Source of the DNA: a virus
Lineage: Duplodnaviria > Caudoviricetes
DNA: 63,965 nucleotides
Virus record (IMG/VR): IMGVR_UViG_3300037714_000156
Location: 1 to 63,965 of that record
Direction: 5' to 3' (one strand)
Under the pieces are notes generated by a model. It ran no database searches, was not told where the DNA came from, and saw only the letters and a list, made by a program, of their open reading frames with translations. Positions 2,459 to 29,967 of the stretch are shown in pieces (the first letter of the stretch is position 1; every line of letters begins with the position of its first letter). The position numbers and the translations under genes are program-made.

Positions 2459-2464
2459 AGGATA

Positions 2465-3307
2465 TTGATGCCAAGATCATCAGGACAATGGAAAGAATTT
2501 GATTTCGTTGATGTTCTTGGGATGAACACCAACACTCTCAACCCGCCGAGAAATACTGCGAGAAGAATACTTAATGTTCACTCACATCAAGAACCTGGCA
2601 AACTTAAAGTAAGACCCGGATATACTTTGAAATATCCAGCTCCTACGGAAAGCACAATAATCGAATTCGAGTTTATGAACTTTGATATGTTCTTCGACAG
2701 GCAGGCATCAGACGTAGAAGAAGAAATCACCTGCGAAATTCAAAAAGGTAAGGTAGTTGCGTTAGCCGATTCAGGATTGCCAGACACAGACACACTAATC
2801 GGATATTGGTTTTGGTGCAGACCGCATTGGGACTTAAATCATTGGGAAGACGGATGGGAGTGGGTAAATAAAACAATCATCACGAAGATAACGACAGGCA
2901 GGGACGACATATTTAAGAGTATGATAAAAATATACGGCGGAGATGCACACGGGTTAGGGGATGATTCTTTAAGAAAATATACCATCTGGAATAAAACAAA
3001 AAATCAGTTTGCAAAAATAATTACCTGCAAGGCTGAAGATGCAACAACGCTCAGATTAAATATTACTTTATTTGATAACGAATGGGAAACAAATGATGTT
3101 GTAGTAATATCAAAATATTGGATTGATCTTGACCATCAGACAACATTACACAACACAGTAAATAAAGAAGATATTGTTTTCCATAACATACTGAATGATA
3201 TAAGAATCGGGTTTGGAGGTAAACCGCTAAGGTTAGGAATAGCGATAGGGCAGAGACAAACAAGTTATCAGATCGGGAAGGAAGAAACAGGAGGAGGATC
3301 ATCATGA
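2465..3307 (+). CDS. Tail nozzle/stabilisation protein, N-terminal part
   Basis: FDFVDVLGMNT...NV...PGKLKVRPGY resembles the start of P22 gp10/T7 gp12-like nozzle proteins. Confidence 0.6.
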   Translation: MMPRSSGQWKEFDFVDVLGMNTNTLNPPRNTARRILNVHSHQEPGKLKVRPGYTLKYPAPTESTIIEFEFMNFDMFFDRQASDVEEEITCEIQKGKVVALADSGLPDTDTLIGYWFWCRPHWDLNHWEDGWEWVNKTIITKITTGRDDIFKSMIKIYGGDAHGLGDDSLRKYTIWNKTKNQFAKIITCKAEDATTLRLNITLFDNEWETNDVVVISKYWIDLDHQTTLHNTVNKEDIVFHNILNDIRIGFGGKPLRLGIAIGQRQTSYQIGKEETGGGSS

Positions 3308-5463: not shown

Positions 5464-5861
5464 TAAATTGGCTTAAAAAGAAATGGACAGAAGAAAAGTG
5501 GGTAATAATATTTCTTATCATTCTATCAATGCTTCGTGCATTACACGAAATAAGTAAATTCAGAATTGAATGGAGCTGGATTCCTTCCTGGGGTTATCCC
5601 TTCGGAATAGAGTCACCGCCATTCGACAGTTATCACGTTTACGGCGGATTATTTGTCCTAATATTTATTGCCGGGTTCAGGGTGAGTTTAAGAGATGAAA
5701 TAATAAACAGGTGGTATGAAATAATCCCGATTGTATTAATTCAATTCGGTATTTATTTCTATTCCTTTAATTGGTTTTATCACGTTATATTTATGAAGCC
5801 AACATTTATGCAATTTGAATATGTTGTGCCCTTTCTCAAATTTATAATGGAGATAATTTAA
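5460..5861 (+). CDS. Multi-pass membrane protein
   Basis: 3-4 hydrophobic segments; start overlaps the upstream stop. Confidence 0.65.
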   Translation: MINWLKKKWTEEKWVIIFLIILSMLRALHEISKFRIEWSWIPSWGYPFGIESPPFDSYHVYGGLFVLIFIAGFRVSLRDEIINRWYEIIPIVLIQFGIYFYSFNWFYHVIFMKPTFMQFEYVVPFLKFIMEII

Positions 5862-6130
5862 TGAACGATACTGAAACAATATTAAAAAAAATAGGTACAC
5901 TTGAAGACAGAATGAAGGTCGAAGTAACAAACGGGAAAATAAAAAAGAAGTGGATTAATGAAGTAGTAGAAGAAATCTGGCATGACATAGAACTTATCAG
6001 GGATCTTAATAAGGCTCACAGGATTACCAAAAAATACAAGCTCTATTGGGTACTAATTGCCATAATCTTATATATGACAGGAACGGGATTAAAAGAAATG
6101 GTAACATCGTTAATTAAATCGTTCAATTAA
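5861..6130 (+). CDS. Small protein with C-terminal membrane anchor (holin-like?)
   Basis: Helical N-terminus plus YWVLIAIILYMTG; GGAG RBS. Confidence 0.6.
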   Translation: MNDTETILKKIGTLEDRMKVEVTNGKIKKKWINEVVEEIWHDIELIRDLNKAHRITKKYKLYWVLIAIILYMTGTGLKEMVTSLIKSFN

Positions 6131-6145
6131 AAGAGAGAAGGGAAA

Positions 6146-6601
6146 ATGAAAAAGTATATTTTATTATTCGCTATAATAGCCGGGTTTTCTTATGCTCAGG
6201 ATGCTCCATCAGGTTACACGGAACATTACGGGCTAAGAAAGTATGCGGAGAATGCAAATCCAAGTGCCGACTCGCTTAATCAAAATTGGACTGATGTTGA
6301 TGAAACCCTTTATGATTTAATCGTATCAACGGACGAAGATCAGTTGGCGATCTTAGATGATGTGCTTACGTTCTCTGATAGTTTATCCGGGATAGGCACA
6401 TTCACGACAACGGCAACTACCTGCACGGTGACAGTATCAGATATGAGCGATGATGATGTAGTAATGCTAACCCCAATCGGTACAGCTTATGATGCAGACG
6501 ATATGCTGAAGGTAAGTGTAGGGAACGGGTCATTTATCGTAACAAGGAACAGTAGCGGGACATCAGGTTTAGAATTTTTTTATCTATGGATTAAAAAATA
6601 A
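6146..6601 (+). CDS. Signal-peptide protein resembling a small tail fibre/spike
   Basis: MKKYILLFAIIAGFSYA|Q, then YTEHYGLRKY...LNQNWTDVD, similar to tail-fibre N-termini. Confidence 0.6.
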   Translation: MKKYILLFAIIAGFSYAQDAPSGYTEHYGLRKYAENANPSADSLNQNWTDVDETLYDLIVSTDEDQLAILDDVLTFSDSLSGIGTFTTTATTCTVTVSDMSDDDVVMLTPIGTAYDADDMLKVSVGNGSFIVTRNSSGTSGLEFFYLWIKK

Positions 6602-14035: not shown

Positions 14036-14797
14036 ATGCCAGGTCAATCTAAACAAGAAAAGCAGGGCGAAAAACTTTACGGCGATATAAGTAAATACAA
14101 TCCTAATGTGCAGAATCGTTTTAATAATTATGAAAACCCTTTTGAGTTCGGAGATGTATCATCCGAATTAGATAGTGTGTTTGGCGGGTATGAAGATATC
14201 ATCAATCGTGATACAGCAGAGACGATTGCAAACACACAGCAACAGGCAGCATCCTCATTGGCTTCAAGGGGGATAACCGGCGGATCTGCTTTGACAGACA
14301 CTAAAACCGGGATAGCTTCAAATATCAACAAGGGAAAAGCAAACGCACTCTCACAGCTTGGTATAGGAAAATCCTCAGCCCTATCAGACCTAATGCAATA
14401 TTTTAATCAGTTGAAATTCGGAACGACAAAGGCAGCATCAGACGTTGATTTCGGCAATGTTAGAAACAAGTTCGGGAAATTCAGTTCACAGGGAGGAGCT
14501 CTTAGTTTCTTAGACGATGATACGTGGCTCGATGATCTGTTCGCAGGATTTAATGCAGCCGGAAATGTGGGTGGAGGTGTCGCTTCAATTGTTACTGCCT
14601 CAGACATCCGCTTAAAAGAGAACCTCAAGAAAGTTAATCAGATAAACGGAATTAATATTTATGAATTCAATTATATAGGAAACCCAAAGAGATTCAGAGG
14701 TGTTATAGCCCAAGAAGTACCCGAAGCCTCGGTAAACATTGGCGGGGTTTTATTTGTTGATTATCCCAAATTAGGAATTCCATTTGAGGAGGTATAA
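14036..14797 (+). CDS. Ejection/pilot protein with C-terminal peptidase S74 (intramolecular chaperone) domain
   Basis: LASRGITGGS helical Gly/Ala/Gln-rich region; SDIRLKENL...IYEFNY...GVIAQEV...VDY; GGAGG RBS before ATG 14036. Confidence 0.75.
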   Translation: MPGQSKQEKQGEKLYGDISKYNPNVQNRFNNYENPFEFGDVSSELDSVFGGYEDIINRDTAETIANTQQQAASSLASRGITGGSALTDTKTGIASNINKGKANALSQLGIGKSSALSDLMQYFNQLKFGTTKAASDVDFGNVRNKFGKFSSQGGALSFLDDDTWLDDLFAGFNAAGNVGGGVASIVTASDIRLKENLKKVNQINGINIYEFNYIGNPKRFRGVIAQEVPEASVNIGGVLFVDYPKLGIPFEEV

Positions 14798-14800
14798 GCC

Positions 14801-16003
14801 ATGTCAATCGCCAAATCATTAAGGAAAGCAAATTACCTAAGCGGTCTCTCCGGGGGTTTAACTGAAATAGGTATGATCCTTGAGGAAGAAAGAAAGAAAA
14901 AAGAACAAGCGAAGTTCTTTAACACCGTAACAACTCTTTATAAAAAATGGAAAGAAGGTCAGGAAAAAGCATCCAGACCATTCAAACTTAAAGAAGGAGG
15001 AGAAGTAAATAATATCTTCTCTCCAAATATTGTAAGACCAGGGGATAGGATGGGACGGTTTACAGGAGGAATCGGCGGAGAATTAAACGTGCCCGATCTG
15101 CCACCTGAAGTACCGGAAACACAAACACAGCCAATTCCGCAAAGCGAAAAATATTCAAAAGCGTCAGAAAATCTTGATGAGTTTATGCAGGCGATTGCTC
15201 CATCAGTATTAAACCCCAACATAGGCGAAGGGGAATTATCCCGTGTGAATGTATTGAGTGAACTTGCGAAACAGCAAACGGAAAGATTGAGACCTAAAGA
15301 CCCGACATATTTTAATCTGAGTCAGGGAGAAGAAAGATATCAGCAAGATGAGAAGGGTATAAAAAAGGTTGCCTTCAATCCTAAATTAAGCACTTCAAAT
15401 ATCGAAGAATATGAAAGAGATGAAAAGGGAAATTATAAAGTTTATACTATTGAAGGGCAGAAATATTACAATAAATTAAAGAAAGATGCTCAAGGCAATC
15501 AGGTCGGGGAAGAACTTACCAGAATACCGAAATCAGGAGAGGGCGGGACAACTATAAATCTGCCGGAGAATCCGCCGGATATTTCACAACAGGAAAAAGA
15601 TTTAACAAAATCGTGGGATAATTATGAATACTACAATAAGATAACAAAAGAGTTATCAACTGAGTTAGCGAAGATACAGGAAGAATACAAAACGGCAGCA
15701 GATGAAGTCCAGGCAAAAATAAAAATCAGGGCTAACGAAATCAGAGAACAGATAAAAACTGCGGACGAACAAAAAAGTATTTGGTACACAGATGTCAAAG
15801 GTACAACGAATCAACTCGCTAATAAATTAAACAGCAAAATGCCAGGCTTTGAAAAAATCTATAATCTATTATTCCAATCACCGGAAGTAAAAAGCAGAAA
15901 CGCAAAGAAGATTGATGATATGGTTGACAGGGAAATGGAAGGGGCAAGTGACGATGCTAAAAGATGGATGAAAAGAATTCTCAAGGTGAGGGCATTTGAA
16001 TAA
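14801..16003 (+). CDS. Internal virion/ejection protein
   Basis: 400-aa charged helical protein between the pilot and giant proteins; GAGGAGG RBS. Confidence 0.55.
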   Translation: MSIAKSLRKANYLSGLSGGLTEIGMILEEERKKKEQAKFFNTVTTLYKKWKEGQEKASRPFKLKEGGEVNNIFSPNIVRPGDRMGRFTGGIGGELNVPDLPPEVPETQTQPIPQSEKYSKASENLDEFMQAIAPSVLNPNIGEGELSRVNVLSELAKQQTERLRPKDPTYFNLSQGEERYQQDEKGIKKVAFNPKLSTSNIEEYERDEKGNYKVYTIEGQKYYNKLKKDAQGNQVGEELTRIPKSGEGGTTINLPENPPDISQQEKDLTKSWDNYEYYNKITKELSTELAKIQEEYKTAADEVQAKIKIRANEIREQIKTADEQKSIWYTDVKGTTNQLANKLNSKMPGFEKIYNLLFQSPEVKSRNAKKIDDMVDREMEGASDDAKRWMKRILKVRAFE

Positions 16004-19000
16004 TGGCAAAACAACCCTTTGATGATTTAACAAAGATTGCCGATAGGATAGAGCAGAAATATAACCTTGAATGGAAAGACAAGGAAGCTGACACCGACGT
16101 TCAGGATGATCTTACCGGAATAGCGAAACGAATAGAGAACAAATACAATGCCTCAAAACAGAAAACAGATCCGTTTACCGGGATAACCCGGCCAGAACTC
16201 ACTCCCGATTATGGTACATCACAAGATTTATTCAAGTTAGGACAGCCACCGGGAGATAAGCCAATCCAATTAAAAGATACGACAGCAATATCCGAAAGCA
16301 TCAAGCCACCAAAGACAGAGGGGAAAGATGTATTCACAGAGGAAGAATTTGACAATCAAACAAGAAAGATGGAAGGTACGCTCAGGCTGATAAAATCCCT
16401 GGAAGATTATCAAAAGGGAGAGAGTGTATTCGGAGTACCTTTACCAATTCAAACCGTTGCTGAACGACAGAAGAAAATAAAAGACAATCCGTACTTAATG
16501 ACGAGAGAAGAAGCGGAACAATTTTATTCTCAGAATCGGCACTTGCTTAGGGATCTAACTAACACGTCAAGATTAATGTTGAAAAATATTCCGGCAATAG
16601 GGACTATTGTTAATACTCTTTTATATCATGTCAACCCCGAAGGATATCAATATGCAATAGCAGATGAACTCAGACAAAACAAATCCGGGATAGATCAATA
16701 TGCTGATTACGCAGCAGAATTTTCAGGAAGTCTCGCAGGATTGTTTTCAATAGGCGGAGGAATTCATCAGGGAGTCAATACAATAAAAGCAATAGAAACA
16801 TTTGCTAAAACAAACAAAACGATAGCAGATGCAATAGCAGCATTTATCGCAGGAACGACATACGGAGGATTATCAGAAGCAGAAAATCTAAGATTAGGTT
16901 TAATAACACCAGAAGGAGCAATAGCAAACAGTCTCGCATCAGGAGTGGTATGGACTGCATTTACAAAGGTTGGCACAAAAGATTGGTTAAATCTCGGAAA
17001 GAAGATCACACCAACGGTATTGCCCGAAGGTCAAACCCTGAAGGGATTTGTACCGAAATATAAAGCAGTATTGAACGGGCAAAATGTTCAGGTTGGTTAT
17101 GTAAAAGACAAAGGATTTTTAACCACACGAATTGCGAATTGGTTTATTGATACCGGGTTAGTAACAGCCACGGGGACAGTATCGCATAAAGTTGCCAAAG
17201 CAGTAGATGATTCCGAAAAGAATGACACGCCATTAGTTGAGGAATTACAAAAACAATTTACCGAATTAGATTTAACACAGACCGGAATTGAATTTGCGTT
17301 AAATGCGATCTTCACCGGGACAATACCACGCAAATACGGGAAGATGCCACCACCGCCGATAAAAGGTGCGAAGGTTGAACCGAGATTACTTAAACCAGGA
17401 GAAGAAAACATTGATGCAACGGTAAGAGAATCAATGCAACCGAAACCAACCGGACCGCAGGATGTTCAGAGACCAACCGAAGTACAGCCCGTACCTCCTC
17501 CTCCGGTAAAGCCAACAGTAACACCACAGGAAGAAATAGAATTAACTCCCGAACCGGCTATAACTGAAGAACCCGTACAGCAAAGGACAATAGAAGACGA
17601 TGCTCAGGCGTTAAATATTCTTGCACAAAAAATGAGTAGGGGTGAAACCGATTTCACTCCCGAAGAATTACAGCTCCAACAAAGCTATCCTAATTACATC
17701 GAGGGACAGTTAAAGCAGATAAAAGAATCTCCCGAATACCAGGAACAACAAAGAGTCAAAAGACAGCAAGTAAAAGAAACAACTAAATCAGATAACGATA
17801 CCTATGCAGAAATAACCAGACGATTTAAGAACGCTCAGAGGAAGGGACAGCTTGCCGGGATTGAATCAATCAGGGAGGGCGTAACAACAATAACAACGCC
17901 TGAAGTCAGAACTAAAGCGGACGAATTACTGAAACAAGTTGAACAGCATAACAACAAGCTCAGGGAGAAAAATGAATTCACGCTTGAGAATTTAAGCAAG
18001 AAAATATATGGTAAAACAGATCTGAATACTCTTACCGTAGAACAGCAGCAAGGATTACTCGCTGAATACAACGAAATGAAGAAACAGGGAATCACAGAAT
18101 TCAGACCATTAAAAGGACCGGATGAAACACCATTAATAAAAGGAGATAAAGATGCCGTACAAAAGCGAAGCCCAGAGAAAATACTTCAACGCCAACCGGA
18201 AGAAATTGGAGAAGCAGGGAGTGAACGTGGAGGAATTCAACCAATCGTCAAAGGGCAAAAAATTACCGAAGCGGAAGAAGAAGGATTCCTTAAAAAAGAA
18301 AGTGATGAAGAAACTCGGATATTAAAACCCGAAGATGATCTGGAAGTAGAACCCGAACCGTCTGAAGCTCAGAAGGAAGCTGGAAACTATAAAAAAGGTC
18401 ACGTAGAAAGAGACGGACTCGACATCTCACTTGAGAACCTAAAAGGTTCTACCAGATCCGGCACAAATAAATCCGGGAAGAAGTGGGAAATAGAATTGCA
18501 GAATGATTACGGGTATATCAAAGGAACGACAGGAAAAGACAAAGATCATCTTGATGTTTTCCTGGCAGAAGATTATCAGGAAGACTCACCCGTATTTATA
18601 ATTAATCAGACAACCCCGGATGGGAAATTTGATGAACATAAAGTAATGCTCGGATTTGAAACTATGCTGCAAGCAGAGCAAGCGTATAACTCTAATTATG
18701 AAGAAGGAAAAGCATTTCATTCAGATGTTATTGAAATGCCGATGGAAACATTCAAGGTCTGGAGTAAAGAACCTCTCCTAACTAATAAACCTGCGGTAGA
18801 TAAAACTTCCATTGACAACAACAAAGTAGCTATTCAAAGGATGCTCAAACAGGGAAAGAGCATCAAGCAGATCGCCAAAGCACTTAATTTCTCTACTGAT
18901 GAAGTTATTAAGCAAGGAGGTTTGAAAGACCTGGCAGAATATTACGAGGGTGATGAGGCAGCGAGTATTTTGGAAGATGTTAAAGCAGGTAACGTAGTAA

Positions 19001-22000
19001 CTATTGACGCTGATGCTGAATCAAAACAAGAGGCGATGAAAAGAGTAAATCCGACTCTTTACAAGTTAGCACAAAAATCAGCCACGGTTGACGATTTTAT
19101 TAAAGCGGTTGCTAAATCAAGTAAAACAAGTGTTGAAAATATTTCTGCTGAAAATTTAACTGAATTTTATAACCGAGTAGAACCAATAAAGAAAGAGGTT
19201 GAAGCTGAGGTTGAACCGGAAACAAATATCGCCACAGATGCAAAGGGCTACCCGATAGTAACGGATAATTATGGTTATGACCACACAATAAAACTTTGGG
19301 GGACACACGTAGTCAGGACAAGCCCGATAAAAGAAGAAATATCAGAGAGCGGAATAAAGACAAGCAATTATACATTAGGCGGTTCAGGGTGGGAATGGTG
19401 GGGATTCAAAAAGCAGGGAGATATTTGGGAGGGTTATGTAGAGGGATTTGAAAATGAGTTTGGAACTTTTCTTGAGAGCGAATTAAAAGAAAACGGAATT
19501 AAGATTGTTACAGACCCAAAAGAATTACAAGAACTTAATCCTCCAATAGAGTGGAAGTGGAAACAGAAAAAAGTTACTAAGCCACAGAAACCACAGGAAT
19601 TGCCACAGGAATTGAAAGCAGAGAAAAAACCAACCAAGGCTCCGGAGCCCCAAGTTAAACCAGGGAAGAAGTCTGAAAAGCCATCGGTCATTGATGATGA
19701 AATGAAAAACATCATCAAGGATATAGAAAAAGGATTGGAAGGAATTACATTCCAATTAAAGAAACCACAACAGCCGGAGTTTAAGAAAGACATAGGACCC
19801 AAGGCAGTCCTCGGTAAAAAGAAACCTTCATTCCAATTAAAACCCGGTGAAAAGATTCCATCAGACGTACAGACTAAAGCGAATGATCTGATAGGAAAAT
19901 TTATTGATAAAGAAGTTTATCGTTTCAAAGATATTGTAGAAGCAACAGGGAACGCATTTGGAGAAGAAACTCTACAAAGAATATTCCCCGCACTCAAAGC
20001 AGGCTACACAGCATATCTTACTAACGCTACTGATGCCGAAACCAAAGAGATGGATTCTTTTGATATAGTAAAAAAATTCACTCTCGAATCTCCCGAAGGG
20101 AAAGAATACGATAGTTTACGCAAAGAAGTAAAACAACTTCTGATTGATGTTAATGAAATGACTCCCGCCCAAGCTGATTATAAGTTGAGGGGAACAAACG
20201 CAGCGACAATGGCAGGATGGAAGAAAGAACTTACAGAAAGAGCGGAAGCTAAAGGAGAGACAGGAATATCGAGACCCTTCATCCAGAGAGTAAGAGAAGA
20301 AATCCGGTCCGGAAACCAACTCAATAAAACTCAATTAGAAAAAATAGCTAATGAATTCGGTATCACAGATCCCAACGTCGCAAAGGAACAAGCTGAACTT
20401 GCCATAGTTGCTGAAGCAAGGAAGATTATTAACGAGAGCAAAAACGAAAAAGAAGCCTACGACAATATTGTTGAGCTTTACAATAATCAACCAAACCTTA
20501 CCCACAGGACAAATATCTCCGTTGAGAAACAGCAATACTCAACCCCTGCACCGATAGCCTATATTGCGGGATTGTTTGTTGCTGATGGAGTTGGTAACGG
20601 TGATGTATTAGAACCGTCCGCAGGGAACGGTATGCTTGTTATCTCATTTAACACAGGGCAGGTATATGTAAATGAAATAGATTCAGTAAGAAATACAAAC
20701 CTGAGACAGACCGGGTATGAAGGTATTGCAAATATTGATGCTGAAAAGAACGATAATATTTTCGGTAAAAAATTTGATGGGATAATAACCAATCCGCCTT
20801 TCGGAAAAAGTTCGGGCGAAAAGAAATTTAACGATTACAAGCTGAATAAACTTGAACACATTATGGCTGCCAATGCACTAAAACAAATGAACGCAGACGG
20901 CAGGGCTGCAATAATAATAGGCGGACATAATAGTTATGACAACAAGGGCAGATTGCAGAATGATAGGATATTCTTTAATTGGCTGAACCATTATTATAAT
21001 GTAGAGGCGGTATTAAACATTGAAGGTGATCTTTACAAGAAACAGGGGGCACAATTTCCTGTACGCCTTATATTAATTAATGGTAAGAAGGAAACCCCGC
21101 AAGGAGCATCACCGTTATACGATGCTCAAAAAGATGCGGTAATAAAAGATTTTGAAGATTTGTATAACAGAGTAAAGGAGATCAGAGATGAAACTTTATT
21201 ACGACCCGGAGATGATGTCCAACGAAGACCAGGCGGAATTACTGATGTGCGAAGTCCCGGAGGACGCAAAGTTCAAGAACCCGAAGGAGCTGAAACCTTA
21301 CCTGAAGTGGAGGTTGGAAGACCTGATAAAGAAAAGCCCACAAAGCCTTCCGAAGTTGGAGAGTTTGGTGTACGACCTTCTGGAACAGGAAAACCCGTAC
21401 GTGGAGACACCGGAACAGTTGGCAGACCTGATTCTGGAAAGCCCACATTACCAGGAAGTGTTCCAGGTGGTAAAGCAGGACAAGAAGGACGCAGAGACAT
21501 TGACACAGGAAGAAGCGGAAAAGATGTTCAACAAGGTTTCGATAGAGAGCCTCCTTCAGCTATTGCAAGAGCAATTTTAGAAGAAGGGAAACCCAATCTT
21601 CCATATAAAGCAGAATCTAAAGGAGTAACTCTTGAGACCGTCATACCCCGGAATATGGCTTATGAAACATCTAAACAATTACGGAATCTTGCTGAAGATG
21701 TTGGCGGTGATCTTGACCAATTCGTAGCAGACAAACTCGGATATAAAGACAAAGAAGAACTGTACGGTTACTTAGGTGCAGAGCAAATTGATGCGACAGC
21801 TATGGCTATCATTGCTATTGAGCAGGGGCAGGGAATGATTATCGGGGATATGACAGGAGTTGGCAAAGGTAGAATTGCTGCATCTATAATAAAGTATGGA
21901 GTAAGAGAAGGATATAAACCCGTATTCTTCACAGAGAAAGCTGATCTGTTTAGTGATTTCTACCGGGATCTGGTTGATACCGGAAGCAAAGATTTAATTC

Positions 22001-25000
22001 CATTCATTGTGAATAATCCAAGCGCTAAGAACTCCCCGAATATTGTTGATGAGGACGGCAACTTAGTTCATACTGCTTTATCCGGTGATAAGAAAAGTAC
22101 AATATTAAGAATCGGAGATTTGGGAAAATACGATTTTGTTCTCAGCACATATTCACAAGTAAATAGCGAGAGGAGCGGATTAAAAAGAAACTTCATAGAA
22201 GATTTAGTCAGAGACAATATTCTTGTTATGGATGAGAGTCATAATGCAAGCGGTGACTCAAACACAGGCGAATTTTTCAGAGACCTTGTTAGAGATGCTA
22301 AAGGGGTGACATATCTTTCGGCAACATTCGCCAAGAGACCGGACAACATGCCTGTTTATGCTGTTAAGACTGCGATCAGCGAAGCCAATTTAACAGAAGA
22401 TGGGCTTGTCGCAGCGATAGAAAAGGGAGGAGTAGCTTTACAGGAAATTCTTTCAACTGATATGGTAGAAGCCGGACAGATGATAAGAAGGGAAAAAAGT
22501 TATGAAGGAATTAAGATTGATTATAAACCATTAACCGAAAAGAAAACAGAGCATACAAAAATAGTAGATAGTGTTACTGAAATTATCCGGGACATAATTG
22601 CTTTCCAAAAGAATCATGTCAACGGAATAGTTGATGCTATGGATAATGATGCAGTCATGGAAGGAGAAAGAATCGGAGTTGAAACAGGAACAAATATGGC
22701 GGGGATTGATAACACCCCATTCGCTTCAAAAGTATTTAATGTAGTTGACCAATTACTCTTTTCACTAAAAGCAGATTCCGCAGCAGACGAAGCAATCGCA
22801 ACATTTAAGCAAGGGAAAAAACCTGTTATAGCAGTTAAGAATACTATGGAATCATTTCTTGATTATCTCGGAGTACAGGTCGGCGATATTATAGAGAATA
22901 CTGATTTCAGTTCGGTTCTTGAAAGAGGATTAAGAGGGATATTCAGAATAAGACGTGTGGATGTAACCGGGGAAAGTACACCGGACGAATTATCTATTAA
23001 CGATTTATCAGAAGATGGAAGAAAAGAATACAAAAGACTTCTTGATAAAATCAAAAGTACAACTGTTGGTATCACCATATCACCGATAGATCATATTATA
23101 TACAAGTTGAACAAAGCCGGATATAAGGTTGGTGAAATTACAGGCAGAGATATAACATTAAAATTCAGAGATGATGGCAAAGCCATAGTTGAAAAACGTA
23201 CAGAGAAAGACAAGAAAAAAACAATCAGAGATTTTAATAATTGGGAAAACCCCGGCACACCAAGAGGAATTGATAATTATACAGAGATGGCATTAATTGT
23301 AAATGCGTCCGGGTCGGCAGGAAGATCAGCCCACTCATCACCGAAATTCAAAGATCAACGCCAGAGGAAAATGGTAACAGTCCAGGTCGAGCTAAACATC
23401 AATACAGAAATTCAGAAGCGGGGAAGAATCAACAGGACCGGACAAGTAAATAAACCTGAGTATGTTACAATAGCAAGTGCTATCCCGGCAGAGCAAAGAT
23501 TGTTGATGATGGCGAAGAAGAAATTAAAATCGCTTGATGCAAACGTATCATCCGATCAATCGCAGGCAGGTACAACATTCGAGGCGAATGATTTTCTCAA
23601 TAAATATGGCGACAGGATAGTAATAGAATATCTAAAAGAGAATCGTGAATTAAATGATATGCTTTTAGACCCGCTAAAAATGAACATAATGAACGAGGAA
23701 GAAATTGAGAAGTTCACCAACAAAGAAAATGCTGCACATAAAGTAACGGGCAGAGTCGCAATACTGCCGACACATTTACAGGAAGAATTCTATAAAGAAA
23801 TAGGATTCAGATATGACGATCATATTGAATATCTAAACTCGATAGAAGAAAATGACCTTGAAGTAAAGATAATGCCCCTGGAAGCAATGACCACAAATAG
23901 CAGGATGATTGTAGCCGGGAAAGGTGGCGTAAGTCCTTTCGGCAGAGATTCAATGTTGGAGACAGCAGAAGTAAACGTCCTGAAAAAACCTTTCCGTATT
24001 GAAAAAGTAAATGAGTTGCTTGATAAATATTTAGATGGTAAAGGGAAAGATGAAAAGAAAAAAGGAATCATCAATGATTTACGAACATTCTGGAAAGGAT
24101 GGACGGAGGAACATCTTAACAGGAAAGTTCAAACCATCGCAAAGGATTTAAGAATAGAAAAAGAAGATGTCGTTAAATATGCTTCGAGAGGATTAGACGG
24201 CTTACCGGACCTGGTAATTAAATATCCACACTTGCTAAACAAAGAAGTATTTGTTGATACGGAGTTTAACAAATACAGACAGTTATCCGAAAGATTGGAA
24301 GCTCAGGGAAATTATGTATTCAATAATATCTTAGACAGATATGATATAGGCAGAGCATATAAAGTCCCACTTGTCAGAGATAATGTTGCCCCTATCTATT
24401 CAAACGGAATATTTTTAGGATGGGAGATCAGCCCAAAGAGAAGAAATCCCTATGCCCCAAGTGCTATCAAGATGAAATTTGCTGTTGCTGATTCCCGACA
24501 GATAGCACAATTCCAAGGTTCCAACAGGGATTGGCTTAATGATATAACGAGTGAAAGCAGTTCATTAAGTGCATGGCAGCAAAAAGATATGATCGAGGAT
24601 TGGGATAACGCTTTGTCCGATCACCGCCGGGAGATTAAACCGATAGTAACAGGTAATATACTTCAGGTAATGGGCGGGAACGATGTTAAGGGAGGACAGT
24701 TAATTTCCTATACGACAAAAGACGGAGGAATAAAAAGAGGTATTCTTATACACGACAGCAAATCAATTGCAGGAACAGACATAAGAGTACCGATTAAGAG
24801 AGCAAGAAAATACATTCAACAATTACCTCTCGGTGATTTTATAGAAAGTTCAGCCGGTGAAATAGTAATTGCTAATACCGGAAATAATTATTGGGAAATA
24901 GAAGTACCCGCAAGCAAAGCAAAGGGAGGGAAATTCTATCTCGATGAAGGAATGAAAGGATTAGTCAAAGACGGAAGATTCGATAAGGTTGGTAATGCAA

Positions 25001-28000
25001 TGAGAGCTGAATTCAAAAGAGATAATCTTGATAAGCTCATTGATATACTTCAGAAAGATTTCGGAATATCCGTAAGACTATCACAGGAACAGATGAGGAA
25101 GATCAGCGATGATGATAACACCTTTCAGTTAAAACCAGGGAAGGCTTATAAAGATGATTTTAATAATAACATTCCCCCGATATTCAGTAAGCATCACGAA
25201 TATAAATTAAGCCATCCATATCTGAAGCATACGGAAGTTGAATTCGCACAGCCCAAGATAGCATTCTGGACGAGAGAACATATTAAATCTATTGGCTATA
25301 CAGACGCTTTTGTTAATACATTACCCAAATTAGAAAAAGGAGATTATGGTTATGAACAAGGAAAAGAAAAATTCGCAGTCGAAATTGCAGGATACTCCGG
25401 CTATGACCCTGAAGGGGGCGGGGCAATCATCATTGTCAGCAGCACAGCGACTCCATCTGCTTATACCGAAGAAATTATCCACACAATCCAGAAAAGACTT
25501 AAAACAGAAAATCCAGAACTCTTACAAAAAATTGAGCAATGGGAATCCATAGTAAAGAAAGAGGGTAAGGAATTCGGAGTAGAGATTCCAGATGGATATG
25601 AAACATTTGCACAAGCAATGGTATTCACTCATCTCGGATATGCAAATGAAAATCCGGATGTTGCTGAAGTATTTGAGATCCCGAAAGACATTCTTGATGA
25701 ATTCACAGCAATACTAAATCTTGGGAAAATATCTTCTGACGTATTAAAAGGAGAATCACAGAGAGGGATAATCAGACTGCCTTCCGGTAAGATTGACAAC
25801 TCATTACAAAACTTCCGGCAAAAACGACAGGGGACAGCGTTACAACTAAAACCGCCGGAAGATAAGAAACTAAGCAGAGCGAAGGGATTATATTCTCAGT
25901 TAAAATCAGAACTTGGAGAGAAAGCAGACGTTTATCCTGAATGGATTAAACAGATGAGAAAGGAATATGGCAAAGAGTTTGATAAGGAGGCGAGAAAAGT
26001 ATGGAAGGATATGAAAGAACCTGCGGGATTAACTGAAAAAGAATTTCAGAAAAAATATTACTCAAGACACATAGATATTCGGGGCAGAGGCGGGGAAGCA
26101 CTTGAGAACATTGAAAAAATAAAAAGAGAAGGATTCCACTCTGTTTATGCAAACGCATTGCCAATGGGCGTAGGAGAAGGAAAACCGGGTACGGAAACTA
26201 TAACAGACAAACAATATTCTGTTAGAAAAGGCGATGTAGTTTACCTGATTCCAAAAGAATATGTGCTGAATATAGGGACATCAAAACCGGAAAAAATAAA
26301 AGCAGGATGGAAGCCGAAAGACGAAGATATAGTAATTGCAGAATATGATAAACAACCATTATATGAACTTTACAAAAAGAAGTTTGAGCAACAATCATCA
26401 CACCAACTCAAACCTGCGTCCAAAGAATTAATCAATAAGGTCGAAGCCAAAGGGTTGATGATAGATCAGAACCTTGTTGCGACATATAACATAAAAGGTG
26501 AGCCGAGAGAATTCATATCAGTCAGTACACCTGGTCCGGGGCGGAAGCATACCTTATCTTTAGAGGTCAGCAAACTTGACGATGAATTAAAAAAATTCAC
26601 CGGAATAAAAAAATCAATGTTGCTATCTCCGAATGAGATATTATTAAATAGTAAAGGCAGATTCCCGACTCCACTTGCCATAGCAGAAGCCAAAGAAATT
26701 CTCAAAGATAAGTTTGACTCGGAATACCAGAAATTCAGGGAGGAGAATAAACCGCCCAAAAATTTCGATTTAATTTTTGAAGAAGGATTAATCTTAGAGA
26801 ATTTTGCCCGGAAAGTTGTTGCAGCAGATAAACTTGGTATAAAAGATATTAATGCTGATTTGTGGAGTGAGGCGACAAAGATTGAGCGACCAGGAAAATC
26901 AGCCTTCCAACTCAGGAAACCAAAGAAGGACCGGTCCGAAAAACTATTAGGTAAGAAAAAAGAAACAGAAATAGCCAGAGAACAGAACCGGGAACCCGAG
27001 AGCGGAGAAGGTAACGTAGTTGATTTCGGAGTTGGGTTAGGTCAGGTATTTACAGTCACGGCGGATAAGATAAATGATTTTATCAAGAACAACAGGCTTG
27101 AAAAAGAATTAGGAATAGAAGGAGACCCAAAACTAAGAAAGTTATACCGGGAATTTCTTACAGCTCCCCAATGGTTTTTCGATAAAGAACCGCAGTTGAA
27201 AAGAATATGGGATATTGTTGACAGACACTTCGTAAGAAATGTTAATGAAGAAACTGCAATCCTCAGAGAAGATAAATGGCAGAATGGAAAGCCCTGGAGA
27301 AAATTAAGCGAAACAGAGAAAACCGAATTCTTGTCTGCACTAAAAGAATATGAGCAAGTTCAATATGAACTTCAAAGAGACGGCGAATCTCTTGAGTTAC
27401 TTGATTGGGCTGATTACGCAGATGAACATGCTCTGACACCGGGAGTAACAGAATTATTATTCAATGTTTATAAACCTGTAATTGAAACCGCTCTTGATAT
27501 GGTTAAAGATGTTGACCGATATAAAATCATCAATGAGACGAAAGTAAATCCATATCTTGAAAATTACTACATAGCAAAAGAGAGCGGTGCAAGACAGGAA
27601 TTTCTTGATAACACATTAGAGAAAGCGAGAGAAGAATTCTTTAATGACGACCCTAATGCGGAAGCCCTTTACGAAAACGAATTATTAAGGATGGCAACGG
27701 GGAAAGCAGATCCGGTCAGAGCCTTAGAGTTAGCTTGGGGGAACAATCCAAATTTAAGAGAGACACTTGCAGAAGTATTAATCGGTAAGAAATATGAGAA
27801 GATAGACGGCAAAGTTTATTTCCCATCATCAAGATTAGAGAATAAATATTTCCTAAGTGCAATCAAGAAGTCAACGCCTGAAGAAAAACTTATTGAGGGA
27901 ATACAGGATGATAAATTCTTCACAACGAATAATAGCCTGGCAAAGCTGAACACTATAAAAGAGGAATTAGAAGCTCAGGGATATGACACTAAGGTAGGAA

Positions 28001-29967
28001 AGTTTGCAGAAGCTCAGCAGGAGATATTAAATAATGCGATCACTCAGGAAGATTTACTTGACTTGGCATTATCGGCAGGCATCGAGAACGATAATCCATT
28101 ACTTGAACGATTAGTAAAAACAATTCAGGCGAAAGGATTCAGCAGGCATTTCATTCCAAAAAGATTTATTCCGGGATTTGAATACACAACAGAGAATTTT
28201 GAGAAAGCAATCTTCAGATATATGAACTCTGTACCGTTTTATAAAAACAGAACGATAGGCGGAAAAGAATTCGGCAAGGTGATGGGGTTACTCAAACACA
28301 CCGGAGTATTAAAACCAGGGTCAGCGAATGATAAGTATCTTCAGGATCTAAGAAATAAAATTGAGAATAGAGATATAAAATTATCTCAGGCATTAAGGGC
28401 GGTAGCATCAACATATTATCTGGCGTTATCTCCTGCTTATTTATCTCAGCAGATCGTACAACCTCTTAATACATTACTCCCGTATCTCCCGATAGTAGCA
28501 AAAGAACTTGGATTAAGAGGAGCTGAAGCTGAAAAGGCATTTGGTGAGTCGTTAGCAACATCATTACAATATTGGGCTTGGAAAACTTATGACAAAATAA
28601 ACAGAATGACGGGCAGACCGACCAGGGGCAGATTCGGATTAGACCCTGAATTCTTGAGTATCATCAGATCGCTTGAGAGACAGGGAGTAGGCAAGCCATT
28701 AAGGACACTCGAATTAGCCGGTCATGAGGTTGACCCGCAGAAACATTATGATGCAAATCTTTTATCTAAAGGCGTGAGCGGAGTGGCGTGGTTAGGGAAG
28801 ATATCAGGTATGCCAGGTATTCTTGTTGAGGATTTCACACGGACAATCGGCATAAGAGCGTTATACCTGATGGGGAAAAAAGCAGGACTCAGGGGAGCAA
28901 AGATGGAGGACTTTATTTCAACAAACATTGCGAAAACTTTCGGTCCGGCTTCAGGAAGATTGGCGAAACCTCCTGGTTACTACATAGCCGGAGAAGGTAG
29001 AGCAAAACCAATGAAAGAGATTGCACAATCAACAATAGAGTCGTGGTTAACATTCAAGAATTTTGCATTTATGAATTACGGTCAATGGGGAAAAGTATGG
29101 AGAGCGTTAAAGAACGATAATATGTTCAGACCTTTAGCATATAAAACCGGGGCACAGATTGGATTGGGCGGAGTAAAATATATGATGTGGACTGCATCAA
29201 TACTTACTTTACTGAGTGGCATATACGCAATGCTCAATATAACAGAAGACCCGGAAGAACAATATGAGGACTTATTCAAACACTTCAATAAACTAGTTCC
29301 GGGATTAGGTGACGCACTATACAAAGGAATATCATCAATAACATTCAAGGTTGATCTATCCGCTCTGTTTGCTCAGACCGCACCATTAGAAGAACCGTTT
29401 ACGAAAGATGCTATTGAACTTATAGGCGGGGCTCCTGCATCTGCGATAAAAGATATAGTAACAGGTACACCACCGAGAGCGTTGAGAGGTTTTGAGATGG
29501 CGGAGAGATACGAAGAAGAAGGAGTAAAGTTAGGCAGCAGAAAACTTATTCCGTCGGATGAAGTATCTGAATCAGATAAAACAAAAAGGAAACTTGGATT
29601 TACCCCGTTAGATATTTCAGACACATATCAAAAAGAAAATACACGGCAGTTCAAGTCAAGTCAATACACAGATATCATCAGGAAGAAAGTTGCAGAAGAA
29701 ATTATCCCGATGATAAACGCAGGCAACGGAAGCCAGGCAAAAGAAGAATTCAAAAAATTATTTGCTGATATGAAAGCTGATAATGTTTTAACCGAAGGAC
29801 AATTAAAATCCATCGAGGGAGTGAATTCATTTATCTCCCAAGTTGTATTAACTCGTCTTGAAGGTGATGAGAGAGAGACAATAAAGACCTGGAAAAATAA
29901 AGGAGTAACTCCAAAGACCGACAGCAGAAACCGGGAAAGATCAACAAGCCGGGAAAGAACCCGCTAA
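16003..29967 (+). CDS. Giant polyvalent (DarB-like) ejected protein: InPase-like, DUF2958-like, N6-adenine MTase, Strawberry-notch/SF2 helicase and C-terminal membrane-associated region
   Basis: EAQKEAGNYKKGH...DYGYI...DHLDVF (InPase); VLEPSAGNG and ITNPPFG (MTase); GDMTGVGKGR, MDESHNA, QKRGRINRTGQ (helicase). Confidence 0.9.
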   Translation: MAKQPFDDLTKIADRIEQKYNLEWKDKEADTDVQDDLTGIAKRIENKYNASKQKTDPFTGITRPELTPDYGTSQDLFKLGQPPGDKPIQLKDTTAISESIKPPKTEGKDVFTEEEFDNQTRKMEGTLRLIKSLEDYQKGESVFGVPLPIQTVAERQKKIKDNPYLMTREEAEQFYSQNRHLLRDLTNTSRLMLKNIPAIGTIVNTLLYHVNPEGYQYAIADELRQNKSGIDQYADYAAEFSGSLAGLFSIGGGIHQGVNTIKAIETFAKTNKTIADAIAAFIAGTTYGGLSEAENLRLGLITPEGAIANSLASGVVWTAFTKVGTKDWLNLGKKITPTVLPEGQTLKGFVPKYKAVLNGQNVQVGYVKDKGFLTTRIANWFIDTGLVTATGTVSHKVAKAVDDSEKNDTPLVEELQKQFTELDLTQTGIEFALNAIFTGTIPRKYGKMPPPPIKGAKVEPRLLKPGEENIDATVRESMQPKPTGPQDVQRPTEVQPVPPPPVKPTVTPQEEIELTPEPAITEEPVQQRTIEDDAQALNILAQKMSRGETDFTPEELQLQQSYPNYIEGQLKQIKESPEYQEQQRVKRQQVKETTKSDNDTYAEITRRFKNAQRKGQLAGIESIREGVTTITTPEVRTKADELLKQVEQHNNKLREKNEFTLENLSKKIYGKTDLNTLTVEQQQGLLAEYNEMKKQGITEFRPLKGPDETPLIKGDKDAVQKRSPEKILQRQPEEIGEAGSERGGIQPIVKGQKITEAEEEGFLKKESDEETRILKPEDDLEVEPEPSEAQKEAGNYKKGHVERDGLDISLENLKGSTRSGTNKSGKKWEIELQNDYGYIKGTTGKDKDHLDVFLAEDYQEDSPVFIINQTTPDGKFDEHKVMLGFETMLQAEQAYNSNYEEGKAFHSDVIEMPMETFKVWSKEPLLTNKPAVDKTSIDNNKVAIQRMLKQGKSIKQIAKALNFSTDEVIKQGGLKDLAEYYEGDEAASILEDVKAGNVVTIDADAESKQEAMKRVNPTLYKLAQKSATVDDFIKAVAKSSKTSVENISAENLTEFYNRVEPIKKEVEAEVEPETNIATDAKGYPIVTDNYGYDHTIKLWGTHVVRTSPIKEEISESGIKTSNYTLGGSGWEWWGFKKQGDIWEGYVEGFENEFGTFLESELKENGIKIVTDPKELQELNPPIEWKWKQKKVTKPQKPQELPQELKAEKKPTKAPEPQVKPGKKSEKPSVIDDEMKNIIKDIEKGLEGITFQLKKPQQPEFKKDIGPKAVLGKKKPSFQLKPGEKIPSDVQTKANDLIGKFIDKEVYRFKDIVEATGNAFGEETLQRIFPALKAGYTAYLTNATDAETKEMDSFDIVKKFTLESPEGKEYDSLRKEVKQLLIDVNEMTPAQADYKLRGTNAATMAGWKKELTERAEAKGETGISRPFIQRVREEIRSGNQLNKTQLEKIANEFGITDPNVAKEQAELAIVAEARKIINESKNEKEAYDNIVELYNNQPNLTHRTNISVEKQQYSTPAPIAYIAGLFVADGVGNGDVLEPSAGNGMLVISFNTGQVYVNEIDSVRNTNLRQTGYEGIANIDAEKNDNIFGKKFDGIITNPPFGKSSGEKKFNDYKLNKLEHIMAANALKQMNADGRAAIIIGGHNSYDNKGRLQNDRIFFNWLNHYYNVEAVLNIEGDLYKKQGAQFPVRLILINGKKETPQGASPLYDAQKDAVIKDFEDLYNRVKEIRDETLLRPGDDVQRRPGGITDVRSPGGRKVQEPEGAETLPEVEVGRPDKEKPTKPSEVGEFGVRPSGTGKPVRGDTGTVGRPDSGKPTLPGSVPGGKAGQEGRRDIDTGRSGKDVQQGFDREPPSAIARAILEEGKPNLPYKAESKGVTLETVIPRNMAYETSKQLRNLAEDVGGDLDQFVADKLGYKDKEELYGYLGAEQIDATAMAIIAIEQGQGMIIGDMTGVGKGRIAASIIKYGVREGYKPVFFTEKADLFSDFYRDLVDTGSKDLIPFIVNNPSAKNSPNIVDEDGNLVHTALSGDKKSTILRIGDLGKYDFVLSTYSQVNSERSGLKRNFIEDLVRDNILVMDESHNASGDSNTGEFFRDLVRDAKGVTYLSATFAKRPDNMPVYAVKTAISEANLTEDGLVAAIEKGGVALQEILSTDMVEAGQMIRREKSYEGIKIDYKPLTEKKTEHTKIVDSVTEIIRDIIAFQKNHVNGIVDAMDNDAVMEGERIGVETGTNMAGIDNTPFASKVFNVVDQLLFSLKADSAADEAIATFKQGKKPVIAVKNTMESFLDYLGVQVGDIIENTDFSSVLERGLRGIFRIRRVDVTGESTPDELSINDLSEDGRKEYKRLLDKIKSTTVGITISPIDHIIYKLNKAGYKVGEITGRDITLKFRDDGKAIVEKRTEKDKKKTIRDFNNWENPGTPRGIDNYTEMALIVNASGSAGRSAHSSPKFKDQRQRKMVTVQVELNINTEIQKRGRINRTGQVNKPEYVTIASAIPAEQRLLMMAKKKLKSLDANVSSDQSQAGTTFEANDFLNKYGDRIVIEYLKENRELNDMLLDPLKMNIMNEEEIEKFTNKENAAHKVTGRVAILPTHLQEEFYKEIGFRYDDHIEYLNSIEENDLEVKIMPLEAMTTNSRMIVAGKGGVSPFGRDSMLETAEVNVLKKPFRIEKVNELLDKYLDGKGKDEKKKGIINDLRTFWKGWTEEHLNRKVQTIAKDLRIEKEDVVKYASRGLDGLPDLVIKYPHLLNKEVFVDTEFNKYRQLSERLEAQGNYVFNNILDRYDIGRAYKVPLVRDNVAPIYSNGIFLGWEISPKRRNPYAPSAIKMKFAVADSRQIAQFQGSNRDWLNDITSESSSLSAWQQKDMIEDWDNALSDHRREIKPIVTGNILQVMGGNDVKGGQLISYTTKDGGIKRGILIHDSKSIAGTDIRVPIKRARKYIQQLPLGDFIESSAGEIVIANTGNNYWEIEVPASKAKGGKFYLDEGMKGLVKDGRFDKVGNAMRAEFKRDNLDKLIDILQKDFGISVRLSQEQMRKISDDDNTFQLKPGKAYKDDFNNNIPPIFSKHHEYKLSHPYLKHTEVEFAQPKIAFWTREHIKSIGYTDAFVNTLPKLEKGDYGYEQGKEKFAVEIAGYSGYDPEGGGAIIIVSSTATPSAYTEEIIHTIQKRLKTENPELLQKIEQWESIVKKEGKEFGVEIPDGYETFAQAMVFTHLGYANENPDVAEVFEIPKDILDEFTAILNLGKISSDVLKGESQRGIIRLPSGKIDNSLQNFRQKRQGTALQLKPPEDKKLSRAKGLYSQLKSELGEKADVYPEWIKQMRKEYGKEFDKEARKVWKDMKEPAGLTEKEFQKKYYSRHIDIRGRGGEALENIEKIKREGFHSVYANALPMGVGEGKPGTETITDKQYSVRKGDVVYLIPKEYVLNIGTSKPEKIKAGWKPKDEDIVIAEYDKQPLYELYKKKFEQQSSHQLKPASKELINKVEAKGLMIDQNLVATYNIKGEPREFISVSTPGPGRKHTLSLEVSKLDDELKKFTGIKKSMLLSPNEILLNSKGRFPTPLAIAEAKEILKDKFDSEYQKFREENKPPKNFDLIFEEGLILENFARKVVAADKLGIKDINADLWSEATKIERPGKSAFQLRKPKKDRSEKLLGKKKETEIAREQNREPESGEGNVVDFGVGLGQVFTVTADKINDFIKNNRLEKELGIEGDPKLRKLYREFLTAPQWFFDKEPQLKRIWDIVDRHFVRNVNEETAILREDKWQNGKPWRKLSETEKTEFLSALKEYEQVQYELQRDGESLELLDWADYADEHALTPGVTELLFNVYKPVIETALDMVKDVDRYKIINETKVNPYLENYYIAKESGARQEFLDNTLEKAREEFFNDDPNAEALYENELLRMATGKADPVRALELAWGNNPNLRETLAEVLIGKKYEKIDGKVYFPSSRLENKYFLSAIKKSTPEEKLIEGIQDDKFFTTNNSLAKLNTIKEELEAQGYDTKVGKFAEAQQEILNNAITQEDLLDLALSAGIENDNPLLERLVKTIQAKGFSRHFIPKRFIPGFEYTTENFEKAIFRYMNSVPFYKNRTIGGKEFGKVMGLLKHTGVLKPGSANDKYLQDLRNKIENRDIKLSQALRAVASTYYLALSPAYLSQQIVQPLNTLLPYLPIVAKELGLRGAEAEKAFGESLATSLQYWAWKTYDKINRMTGRPTRGRFGLDPEFLSIIRSLERQGVGKPLRTLELAGHEVDPQKHYDANLLSKGVSGVAWLGKISGMPGILVEDFTRTIGIRALYLMGKKAGLRGAKMEDFISTNIAKTFGPASGRLAKPPGYYIAGEGRAKPMKEIAQSTIESWLTFKNFAFMNYGQWGKVWRALKNDNMFRPLAYKTGAQIGLGGVKYMMWTASILTLLSGIYAMLNITEDPEEQYEDLFKHFNKLVPGLGDALYKGISSITFKVDLSALFAQTAPLEEPFTKDAIELIGGAPASAIKDIVTGTPPRALRGFEMAERYEEEGVKLGSRKLIPSDEVSESDKTKRKLGFTPLDISDTYQKENTRQFKSSQYTDIIRKKVAEEIIPMINAGNGSQAKEEFKKLFADMKADNVLTEGQLKSIEGVNSFISQVVLTRLEGDERETIKTWKNKGVTPKTDSRNRERSTSRERTR
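18152..18325 (+). CDS. Nested +1-frame gene: 57-aa basic protein MPYKSEAQRKYFNANRKKLEKQGVNVEEFNQSSKGKKLPKRKKKDSLKKKVMKKLGY
   Basis: AAAGGAGA RBS just upstream; resembles small phage proteins starting MP[FY]KSxAQ; below the ORF-track length cutoff. Confidence 0.7.
   Translation: MPYKSEAQRKYFNANRKKLEKQGVNVEEFNQSSKGKKLPKRKKKDSLKKKVMKKLGY
21188..21580 (+). CDS. Nested +1-frame gene: 130-aa acidic helical protein
   Basis: AAGGAG RBS at 21175-21180; globular-looking composition while the host frame is a G/R/P-rich linker over the same span. Confidence 0.7.
   Translation: MKLYYDPEMMSNEDQAELLMCEVPEDAKFKNPKELKPYLKWRLEDLIKKSPQSLPKLESLVYDLLEQENPYVETPEQLADLILESPHYQEVFQVVKQDKKDAETLTQEEAEKMFNKVSIESLLQLLQEQF

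Follow-up and report, generated by a model that had tools for sequence, protein, structure and literature searches.

Here, we show that a stretch of a giant phage gene bears the evolutionary marks of a second gene, and we consider it very probable that the open reading frame (ORF) at 21188..21580 (+) really codes for a protein, as a gene that lies entirely within the giant one and is read one base out of its frame. The DNA analysed, referred to as the window, is the whole 63,965-bp IMG/VR record IMGVR_UViG_3300037714_000156 (Caudoviricetes), which represents a complete virus with direct terminal repeats. The host gene of the overlap lies at 16003..29967 (+) as a single ORF of 4654 amino acids (aa) encoding a giant polyvalent protein. 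The nested ORF occupies its +1 frame, starts with ATG, ends with TAG and encodes 130 aa, and a Shine-Dalgarno (SD)-like AAGGAG stands at 21175-21180 (+) with a spacer of 7 nucleotides (nt) to the ATG. Read in the giant frame, positions 21176..21580 (+) give a G/R/P-rich linker (about aa 1725-1859) between the methyltransferase and helicase domains. The first-pass annotation, made by a model from the letters alone, had noticed both the AAGGAG with a +1-frame ORF of 130 aa at 21175-21580 and its coincidence with this linker; the former proved correct to the base, and the latter is borne out by the coordinates together with the Pfam domain assignments.

The evidence that carries this conclusion comes from relatives, which were sought with the junction region in IMG/VR and in Joint Genome Institute (JGI) metagenomes, with GenBank phages added. 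Two close relatives, L001 and L002, share 77% and 72% identity with the window over 733 aa of the giant protein (the same contigs recur as L006 and L005), and a metagenome scan with the junction alignment A2 returned these two and the more distant L007, with no further ones. The giant ORF is open over 4645 and 4878 codons in the two close relatives. L001 has a nested ORF of 128 aa at 3785..4171 with frame, ATG and stop position as in the window, and that of L002 has its ATG at 3785, its end at 4174 and an upstream TTG at 3749, again with frame and stop position kept, so that +1 frame, start and stop are preserved in both of the close relatives found, as the first-pass annotation had proposed to check. 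The nested proteins are 72% and 62% identical to that of the window (L001 and L002; alignment A1), and the giant-frame linkers read from the same DNA are 57% and 49% identical. Contigs of four DNA runs mapped to the window gave only short identical pieces, none of them across 21104-21545.

Substitutions in the overlap follow the +1 frame. Between the window and L001, divergence at the first, second and third codon positions of the giant frame is.336/.195/.172 within the overlap, whereas the methyltransferase flank has.098/.059/.453 and the helicase flank.159/.120/.465; within the overlap the usually fast third position thus changes least, and most change falls on the first position, equivalent to the third position of the +1 frame. 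The ratio of nonsynonymous to synonymous change (dN/dS; Nei-Gojobori, pairwise among the three genomes, 390-nt segment) is 0.14-0.20 for the +1 frame of the overlap and 1.44-1.71 for its giant frame, whereas in the flanks it is 0.06-0.09 for the giant frame and 1.4-1.7 for the +1 frame, with off-frames overall at 1.4-1.9. At 39, 42 and 49 single bases the three pairs differ in a way that is silent in the +1 frame and alters the giant frame, and at 17, 20 and 17 in the converse way; with a mutational expectation of 0.40-0.43 for the +1-silent class, the binomial p values are 6e-6, 8e-6 and 2e-7. These sequence comparisons show the +1 frame of the overlap evolving as a gene would, and the giant frame as would an off-frame.

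The signals expected of a translation start are likewise conserved. AAGGAG, the 7-nt spacer and the ATG are unchanged in the window, L001 and L002, and the giant-frame Lys and Glu codons that lie over the AAGGAG end in G in all three genomes. Conservation of synonymous sites starts about 45 nt 5' of the nested ATG, in a conserved block at 21142..21187 (+): giant-frame third positions agree across the three genomes in 13 of the 16 codons of 21142-21187, against 9 of 37 in 21031-21141, and 26 consecutive nt here are invariant in alignment A3. This block is probably the translation-initiation region of the nested gene, possibly with other signals in addition; a promoter scan called no sigma-70-like site on the + strand before the nested start. 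SD motifs are enriched at the gene starts of this genome: of 53 starts, 10 have a strong one in front and 32 a weak one, whereas the background is 2% of random positions for strong motifs and 14% for weak ones.

The stop-free +1 run at 21176..21580 spans 134 codons and is the longest same-strand off-frame run of the giant gene, the next ones measuring 84 codons (+2 frame) and 72 codons (+1 frame); on the reverse strand, runs of 191 and 160 codons exceed it, and there is another of 122. Because a hydrophilic linker holds few codons able to create +1 stops, openness was tested by shuffling under three schemes (5000 shuffles each), the measure being the share in which the +1 frame stays open. For the window this share is 0.0002 when codon order is shuffled (mean 5.4 stops), 0.0014 when synonymous codons are redrawn from gene-wide usage (mean 5.1 stops) and 0.064 when synonymous codons are shuffled within the region (mean 1.8 stops); the corresponding values are 0.000/0.0006/0.001 for L001 and 0.0002/0.019/0.077 for L002. 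Moreover, each of the eight xTA/xTG codons in the nested run precedes a base that avoids a stop. Chance is an unlikely source of this open frame. It could still be argued that the frame is a compositional by-product of a linker poor in hydrophobic residues and encodes nothing, given that V, I, L, M and F codons make up only 23 of the 134, that hydrophilic linkers of distant relatives also show open +1 runs (99 and 121 codons), and that shuffling synonymous codons within the region gives no more than borderline P values for the window and L002 (0.064 and 0.077, as above). We hold this to be highly improbable in view of the start and stop conserved in relatives, the +1 dN/dS of 0.14-0.20 against 1.4-1.7 in the giant frame, the drop of giant-frame third-position divergence from ~.45 to.17, the profile matches to proteins elsewhere and the confident predicted fold; the remaining divergent linkers of the giant gene are without this signature, and the hydrophilic linker of Acinetobacter phage MD-2021a is without a +1 run. 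Nor does a nucleic-acid element, such as an RNA structure or a packaging or regulatory site, offer a credible account of the conservation. Such an element would likewise conserve giant-frame synonymous sites, but the divergence has a three-base periodicity in the +1 phase, being fastest at +1 third positions, dN/dS of the +1 frame is low, homologues are recognizable as proteins at 24-45% identity, where DNA similarity would have vanished, and the protein fold is predicted with confidence.

It was suggested in the first-pass annotation that the linker is the off-frame shadow of a real gene, and the conserved ORF, the contrast in dN/dS, and the protein family with its confident fold all support this suggestion. 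T accounts for 8% and G for 46% of the third positions of the nested ORF; in the genome the shares are 26-27% and 18-20%. A T-ending codon in front of a codon that begins with AA, AG or GA is the combination that would make a giant-frame stop, and none of the 10 T-ending nested codons stands in front of one, though 52 codons are followed by one. When the nested protein was recoded with the codon usage of the phage, a mean of 10.2 giant-frame stops appeared and none of 5000 recodings was open, which indicates that giant-frame translation through the linker is itself under selection. The local rise in G+C (0.50 against ~0.38) arises because the codon choice of the nested gene avoids giant-frame stops, and the composition of the linker follows from the nested Glu, Asp, Lys, Leu and Pro codons when these are read one base early, those for Glu and Asp giving Gly and Arg, and those for Pro and Leu giving Pro, Ser, Thr and Ala. 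These patterns show each frame as constrained in its codon choice to keep the other open, and the linker as a stretch on which its own frame appears to impose nothing except freedom from stops.

The nested product belongs to a protein family found also outside the overlap. A profile of the three nested sequences, searched against 1.84 billion representative proteins, gave 15 matches at E<=1e-3, three of them at <=1e-10. Nine matches of 110-138 aa are colinear with the nested ORF over its whole length, the 43-aa fragment P0012 covers only the N-terminal 36 profile positions, and five (P0005, P0010, P0011, P0013, P0019) carry the domain at the C-terminus of proteins of 319-487 aa; in four of these five it follows 3-4 transmembrane (TM)-like segments, and one has two copies of the domain. 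Methionine stands at the residue equivalent to the nested start in the ~130-aa proteins P0003, P0006 and P0016 and in the fragment P0012. A second search added P0016 (45% identical), P0017 and P0018, and a search for longer fused forms yielded P0005 only. In L011, from a metagenome-assembled genome (MAG) of Bacteroidota, the domain ends a 252-aa ORF with no overlapping same-strand ORF and was verified on the DNA as non-nested; its neighbours are a DUF6642 protein at 79-666 (E 3.6e-33) and a protein of at least 452 aa at 2045-3400 with a weak DUF559 match (E 0.0032). The family is rare in this phylum: among 401 of its genomes, alignment A4 matched one, the already known G001. Searches elsewhere were negative within their scope: in 50,697 phage records, tblastn with the 130-aa protein returned only noise at E>=4, tblastn of P0017 and P0006 against plasmids and of P0013 against phages matched nothing, a viral-contig scan with P0017 gave no match, and an ESM Atlas search with the 130-aa family gave no usable one. 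A separate observation concerns a Bacteroidetes MAG (L010), in which an 83-aa ORF at 5986-6237 matches the N-terminal half of the family only; it overlaps ORFs at 5658..6200 (+) and 5770..6315 (-) and may be a truncated or frameshifted remnant.

No curated family accounts for the protein above its cut-off (best Pfam E 0.22, PHROGs none), and the best values in PADLOC (E 0.0066) and NCBIfam (E 0.0077), each reached by 1 of 12 members, lie below the curated cut-offs; a profile search of PDB sequences gave no significant match (best E 0.029). Structure prediction of the nested protein alone, a further check put forward in the first-pass annotation, returned a confident model: AlphaFold2 on a 12-sequence alignment gave a mean predicted local distance difference test score (pLDDT) of 88.7 and a predicted template modelling score of 0.83, in which seven helices come after a short beta-hairpin. 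For this model a Foldseek search of PDB and BFVD found nothing at E<=0.001, and the best hit of an exhaustive, wide VIA-align comparison had a Z of 3.0, unusually low for a helical model. The nested protein is acidic (net charge -13, isoelectric point (pI) 4.47) and has no TM-like window, and all 12 aligned members share the acidity, with net charges of -7 to -17 and pI values of 4.2-4.7. R42 is the only invariant polar residue of the family; since there are no conserved catalytic residues, a binding role is likelier than a catalytic one. Compared with DNA mimics of the Ocr/ArdA kind, the protein is as acidic as expected, though charge alone is unspecific, and neither Foldseek nor VIA listed a chain of this kind. 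Taken from its sequence and its model, the nested product seems to be a cytoplasmic-looking, non-enzymatic protein of an uncharacterised family, with a predicted new fold.

There are points that weigh against reading 21188..21580 as a gene of this kind. The selection analysis covers three genomes, and its three pairwise comparisons, having branches in common, cannot count as independent. Members of the family are rare, and many of the matches come from contigs of 556-3525 bases and may be nested copies called on fragments. By the codon-usage criterion, the nested frame looks like the younger of the two frames, at odds with the phylogenetic case for a small gene that was there first, although the stop-avoidance constraint explains the skew. 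Finally, the distant relatives at the methyltransferase-helicase junction, L007 (35% identity), Bacteroides phage BS-TP4 (39%) and Acinetobacter phage MD-2021a (28%), give a mixed picture. The junction of MD-2021a is an acidic linker with no +1 run. BS-TP4 (L008 6794-7159) has an open +1 run of 121 codons there, the longest +1 run within the 14-kb stretch examined, and L007 (3288-3587) one of 99 codons, both with in-frame ATGs; shuffled in the three ways described above, the junction gives P values of 0.001/0.035/0.006 for BS-TP4 and 0.039/0.025/0.28 for L007. When compared with the family, these two +1 ORFs have hhalign probabilities of 0.1-0.9% and no BLASTP match; their translations have no detectable similarity to each other and no match in Pfam, and a single-sequence AlphaFold2 model of the L007 ORF has a pLDDT of 50.9. 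These runs may be diverged copies, different nested genes or by-products. The record of BS-TP4 annotates a single coding sequence across the junction region.

The overlap at 21188..21580 has a companion. A second nested gene at 18152..18325 (+), also in the +1 frame, encodes 57 aa just upstream of the InPase domain and has an AAGGAG at 18140. The first-pass annotation had already pointed to it, and by the same tests it is real: the ORF and its ATG are conserved in L001 and L002, dN/dS is 0.07-0.31 in the +1 frame against 0.91-1.19 in the giant frame, and the protein has 417 small homologues, with 64-88% identity among the matches listed, and no match in Pfam. Examination of the best 80 of 165 viral relatives placed the 57-aa gene wholly inside a same-strand ORF of at least 300 codons, in the same relative frame, at 34 loci, and as a free-standing gene or at the head of a longer in-frame ORF at the other 46. 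None of the 29 virus records with a nested 57-aa gene matched the 130-aa family (A4) or the junction (A2), though such empty answers are weak.

With two linkers that hide genes, the suggestion of systematic dual coding in such linkers holds in part; its general form does not, as a scan of the whole 14-kb gene found just these two. The scan was run over a three-way codon alignment in sliding segments of 40 codons (n=449) and flagged those with third-position divergence below 0.30 and no higher than that of the first position. Two stretches only were flagged, 18091-18240 and 21133-21520, and the other divergent linkers of the giant gene are saturated at all codon positions. Nesting of the 57-aa gene is widespread, and dual coding is not a property of every linker. 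A third candidate, 25334..25552 (+), consists of a 72-codon +1 run that is open in the three genomes, with an AAGGAG at 25337 and in-frame ATGs; it was rejected as a gene on account of a +1 dN/dS of 0.5-1.05, poor identity and no signature of purifying selection.

As to mechanism, the conserved signals suggest that ribosomes would initiate independently at the AAGGAG-N7-ATG on the giant-gene mRNA and make a 130-aa acidic, mostly helical and probably non-enzymatic protein. The same DNA, translated in the giant frame, would supply the G/R/P-rich linker that joins methyltransferase and helicase, and the giant frame would stay open through the nested gene's avoidance of T-ending codons before AA, AG and GA codons. 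In principle, the +1 frame might instead be reached by programmed +1 frameshifting, which would give a truncated N-terminal product that runs through the methyltransferase and ends in the 130-aa domain. The C-terminal position of the domain in the larger homologues P0005, P0010, P0011, P0013 and P0019 would fit such a product, as would the +1 frame of L002, which is open 12 codons further upstream; in prfB, an SD-like element just upstream of the shift site stimulates +1 shifting. In the window and L001, however, a +1-frame stop 4 codons ahead of the nested ATG leaves 12 nt for a shift, with no slippery or stop-codon shift site evident, and the spacing of AAGGAG, 7 nt and ATG is typical of initiation. 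This upstream stop, the invariance of SD element and ATG, and the methionine with which P0003, P0006, P0016 and P0012 start at the equivalent residue favour independent initiation, and we regard frameshifting as very unlikely. With regard to origin, the small genes probably came first, with the giant ORF later reading across them, because both small-protein families exist outside overlaps. Lineage-specific de novo birth of the 130-aa gene is less likely, since homologues outside the overlap (the 15 profile matches and the non-nested L011) speak against a de novo overprinted gene.

The gene at 14036..14797 (+), two ahead of the giant gene, has matches (E 1.9e-11) to PHROGs of DNA ejection or virion structural proteins, which is consistent with a virion-associated giant protein. 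As to function, we lean, at less than even odds, towards a role for the nested product as a partner of this giant, probably virion-delivered, protein, made from the same mRNA as an inhibitor, chaperone or assembly adaptor, because co-expression would be obligatory, the protein is small, acidic and apparently non-catalytic, and lambda Rz/Rz1 offers an analogy. The main alternative, which we hold to be nearly as likely, is that the nested gene is real but independent, its product being a free acidic decoy, counter-defence or exclusion protein that borrows the transcript of the giant gene. The acidity of all 12 aligned members, the lack of conserved catalytic residues (R42 being the sole invariant polar residue), the rare and patchy distribution, in which some members are fused to TM-like N-terminal regions and one is duplicated in tandem, and a host gene that is itself a conflict-type polyvalent protein would all suit a free effector. 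Against it, there is no match in PADLOC, PHROGs, Pfam or NCBIfam and no fold match to known DNA mimics or any other structure, which leaves charge and size as its basis, and the region looks late or structural, beside an ejection-protein-like gene, where early anti-restriction genes are not usually found. Returning to the partner role, it is possible to go a step further, in a speculative proposal that we ourselves think doubtful: giant polyvalent genes would grow by swallowing neighbouring small genes, some disordered linkers would be the shadows of live nested genes, and the nested proteins would regulate the injected giant protein as inhibitor, chaperone or adaptor, being synthesized next to the nascent chain and not carried along when packaging takes place.

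Overlaps of this sort have precedents. In lambda, Rz1 lies in the +1 frame of Rz, so that there, as here, a complete small gene with its own start is placed out of frame inside a larger same-strand phage gene and both products are made. The host protein there is of the 153-aa class and here is a multidomain protein of 4654 aa; Rz1 is a lipoprotein of known function, in contrast to the cytoplasmic-looking nested protein with no TM-like window; and both frames are functional in lambda, whereas the host frame here seems to be an unconstrained linker. Rz and Rz1 are described as partners in one spanin complex (PMC5295617, PMC6139136). In hepatitis B virus (HBV), the spacer of the polymerase lies over preS-S, and this tolerant linker between enzymatic domains doubles as a gene in another frame; a proposed origin of the overlap is a short gene between two genes that later fused (PMC8227390). 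As in the window, the DNA for a linker of a large protein there has a second product in a different frame. No homology is meant, the families being unrelated, and HBV is a 3-kb animal virus under extreme compaction, unlike a 64-kb phage with no obvious size pressure. Phage phiX174 has gene B nested in A and gene E in D. Overprinting in viruses (PMC8227390) resembles the present case in that the alternative frame is open, the host frame shows less synonymous change and selection is asymmetric. Overprinted genes are usually young, lineage-restricted and often disordered, whereas the nested frame here is predicted to be well folded, is the more constrained of the two and has homologues outside the overlap, and it is the host frame that is disordered.

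DNA methylase-helicase dyads are exemplified by DarB of phage P1. The architecture of InPase, methylase and Strawberry-notch-type helicase resembles that of the polyvalent proteins described by Iyer, Burroughs, Anand, de Souza and Aravind (2017; PMC5512222, available in part). In the main text of that paper, as available, the words 'overlapping', 'frameshift' and 'linker' occur 0 times and nested genes are not described, and the available parts of the literature on polyvalent proteins, phage overprinting and nested out-of-frame phage genes hold no report of nested genes in polyvalent proteins. Nested phage genes as such are known; what appears to be new is an out-of-frame nested phage gene inside the linker of a giant polyvalent protein, encoding a new family.

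Gene callers report only the giant ORF, so phage annotation does not show nested genes of this kind. If the nested genes are what we take them to be, some disordered linkers at least would owe their origin to the wrong-frame reading of a folded, conserved protein, and giant polyvalent genes could have been put together along such a route. The nested product is the basis of a protein family with a confident model and no known fold match. As the 57-aa gene recurs in nested form among many uncultured phages, overlaps like these may be common, and its 34 nested loci among 80 suggest, if true, a widespread coding layer of phages that is missed by gene callers. Knockouts that are silent in the giant frame exist, which makes the function of the nested genes cleanly testable.

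The giant protein itself contains InPase, helix-turn-helix, N6-methyltransferase and Strawberry-notch helicase domains and a long C-terminal part. Pfam places the InPase domain (PF18823) at aa 788-922, the RMKL-like N6-methyltransferase (PF01170) at aa 1564-1644 and the Strawberry-notch helicase at aa 1940-2177 (PF13872) and aa 2361-2611 (PF13871). With several conflict-related domains in one polypeptide, the giant gene has the polyvalent-protein architecture. Its antisense strand also contains long stop-free runs, at 26466-27041 (191 codons) and at 19434-19916 (160 codons), in a frame that is often left open.

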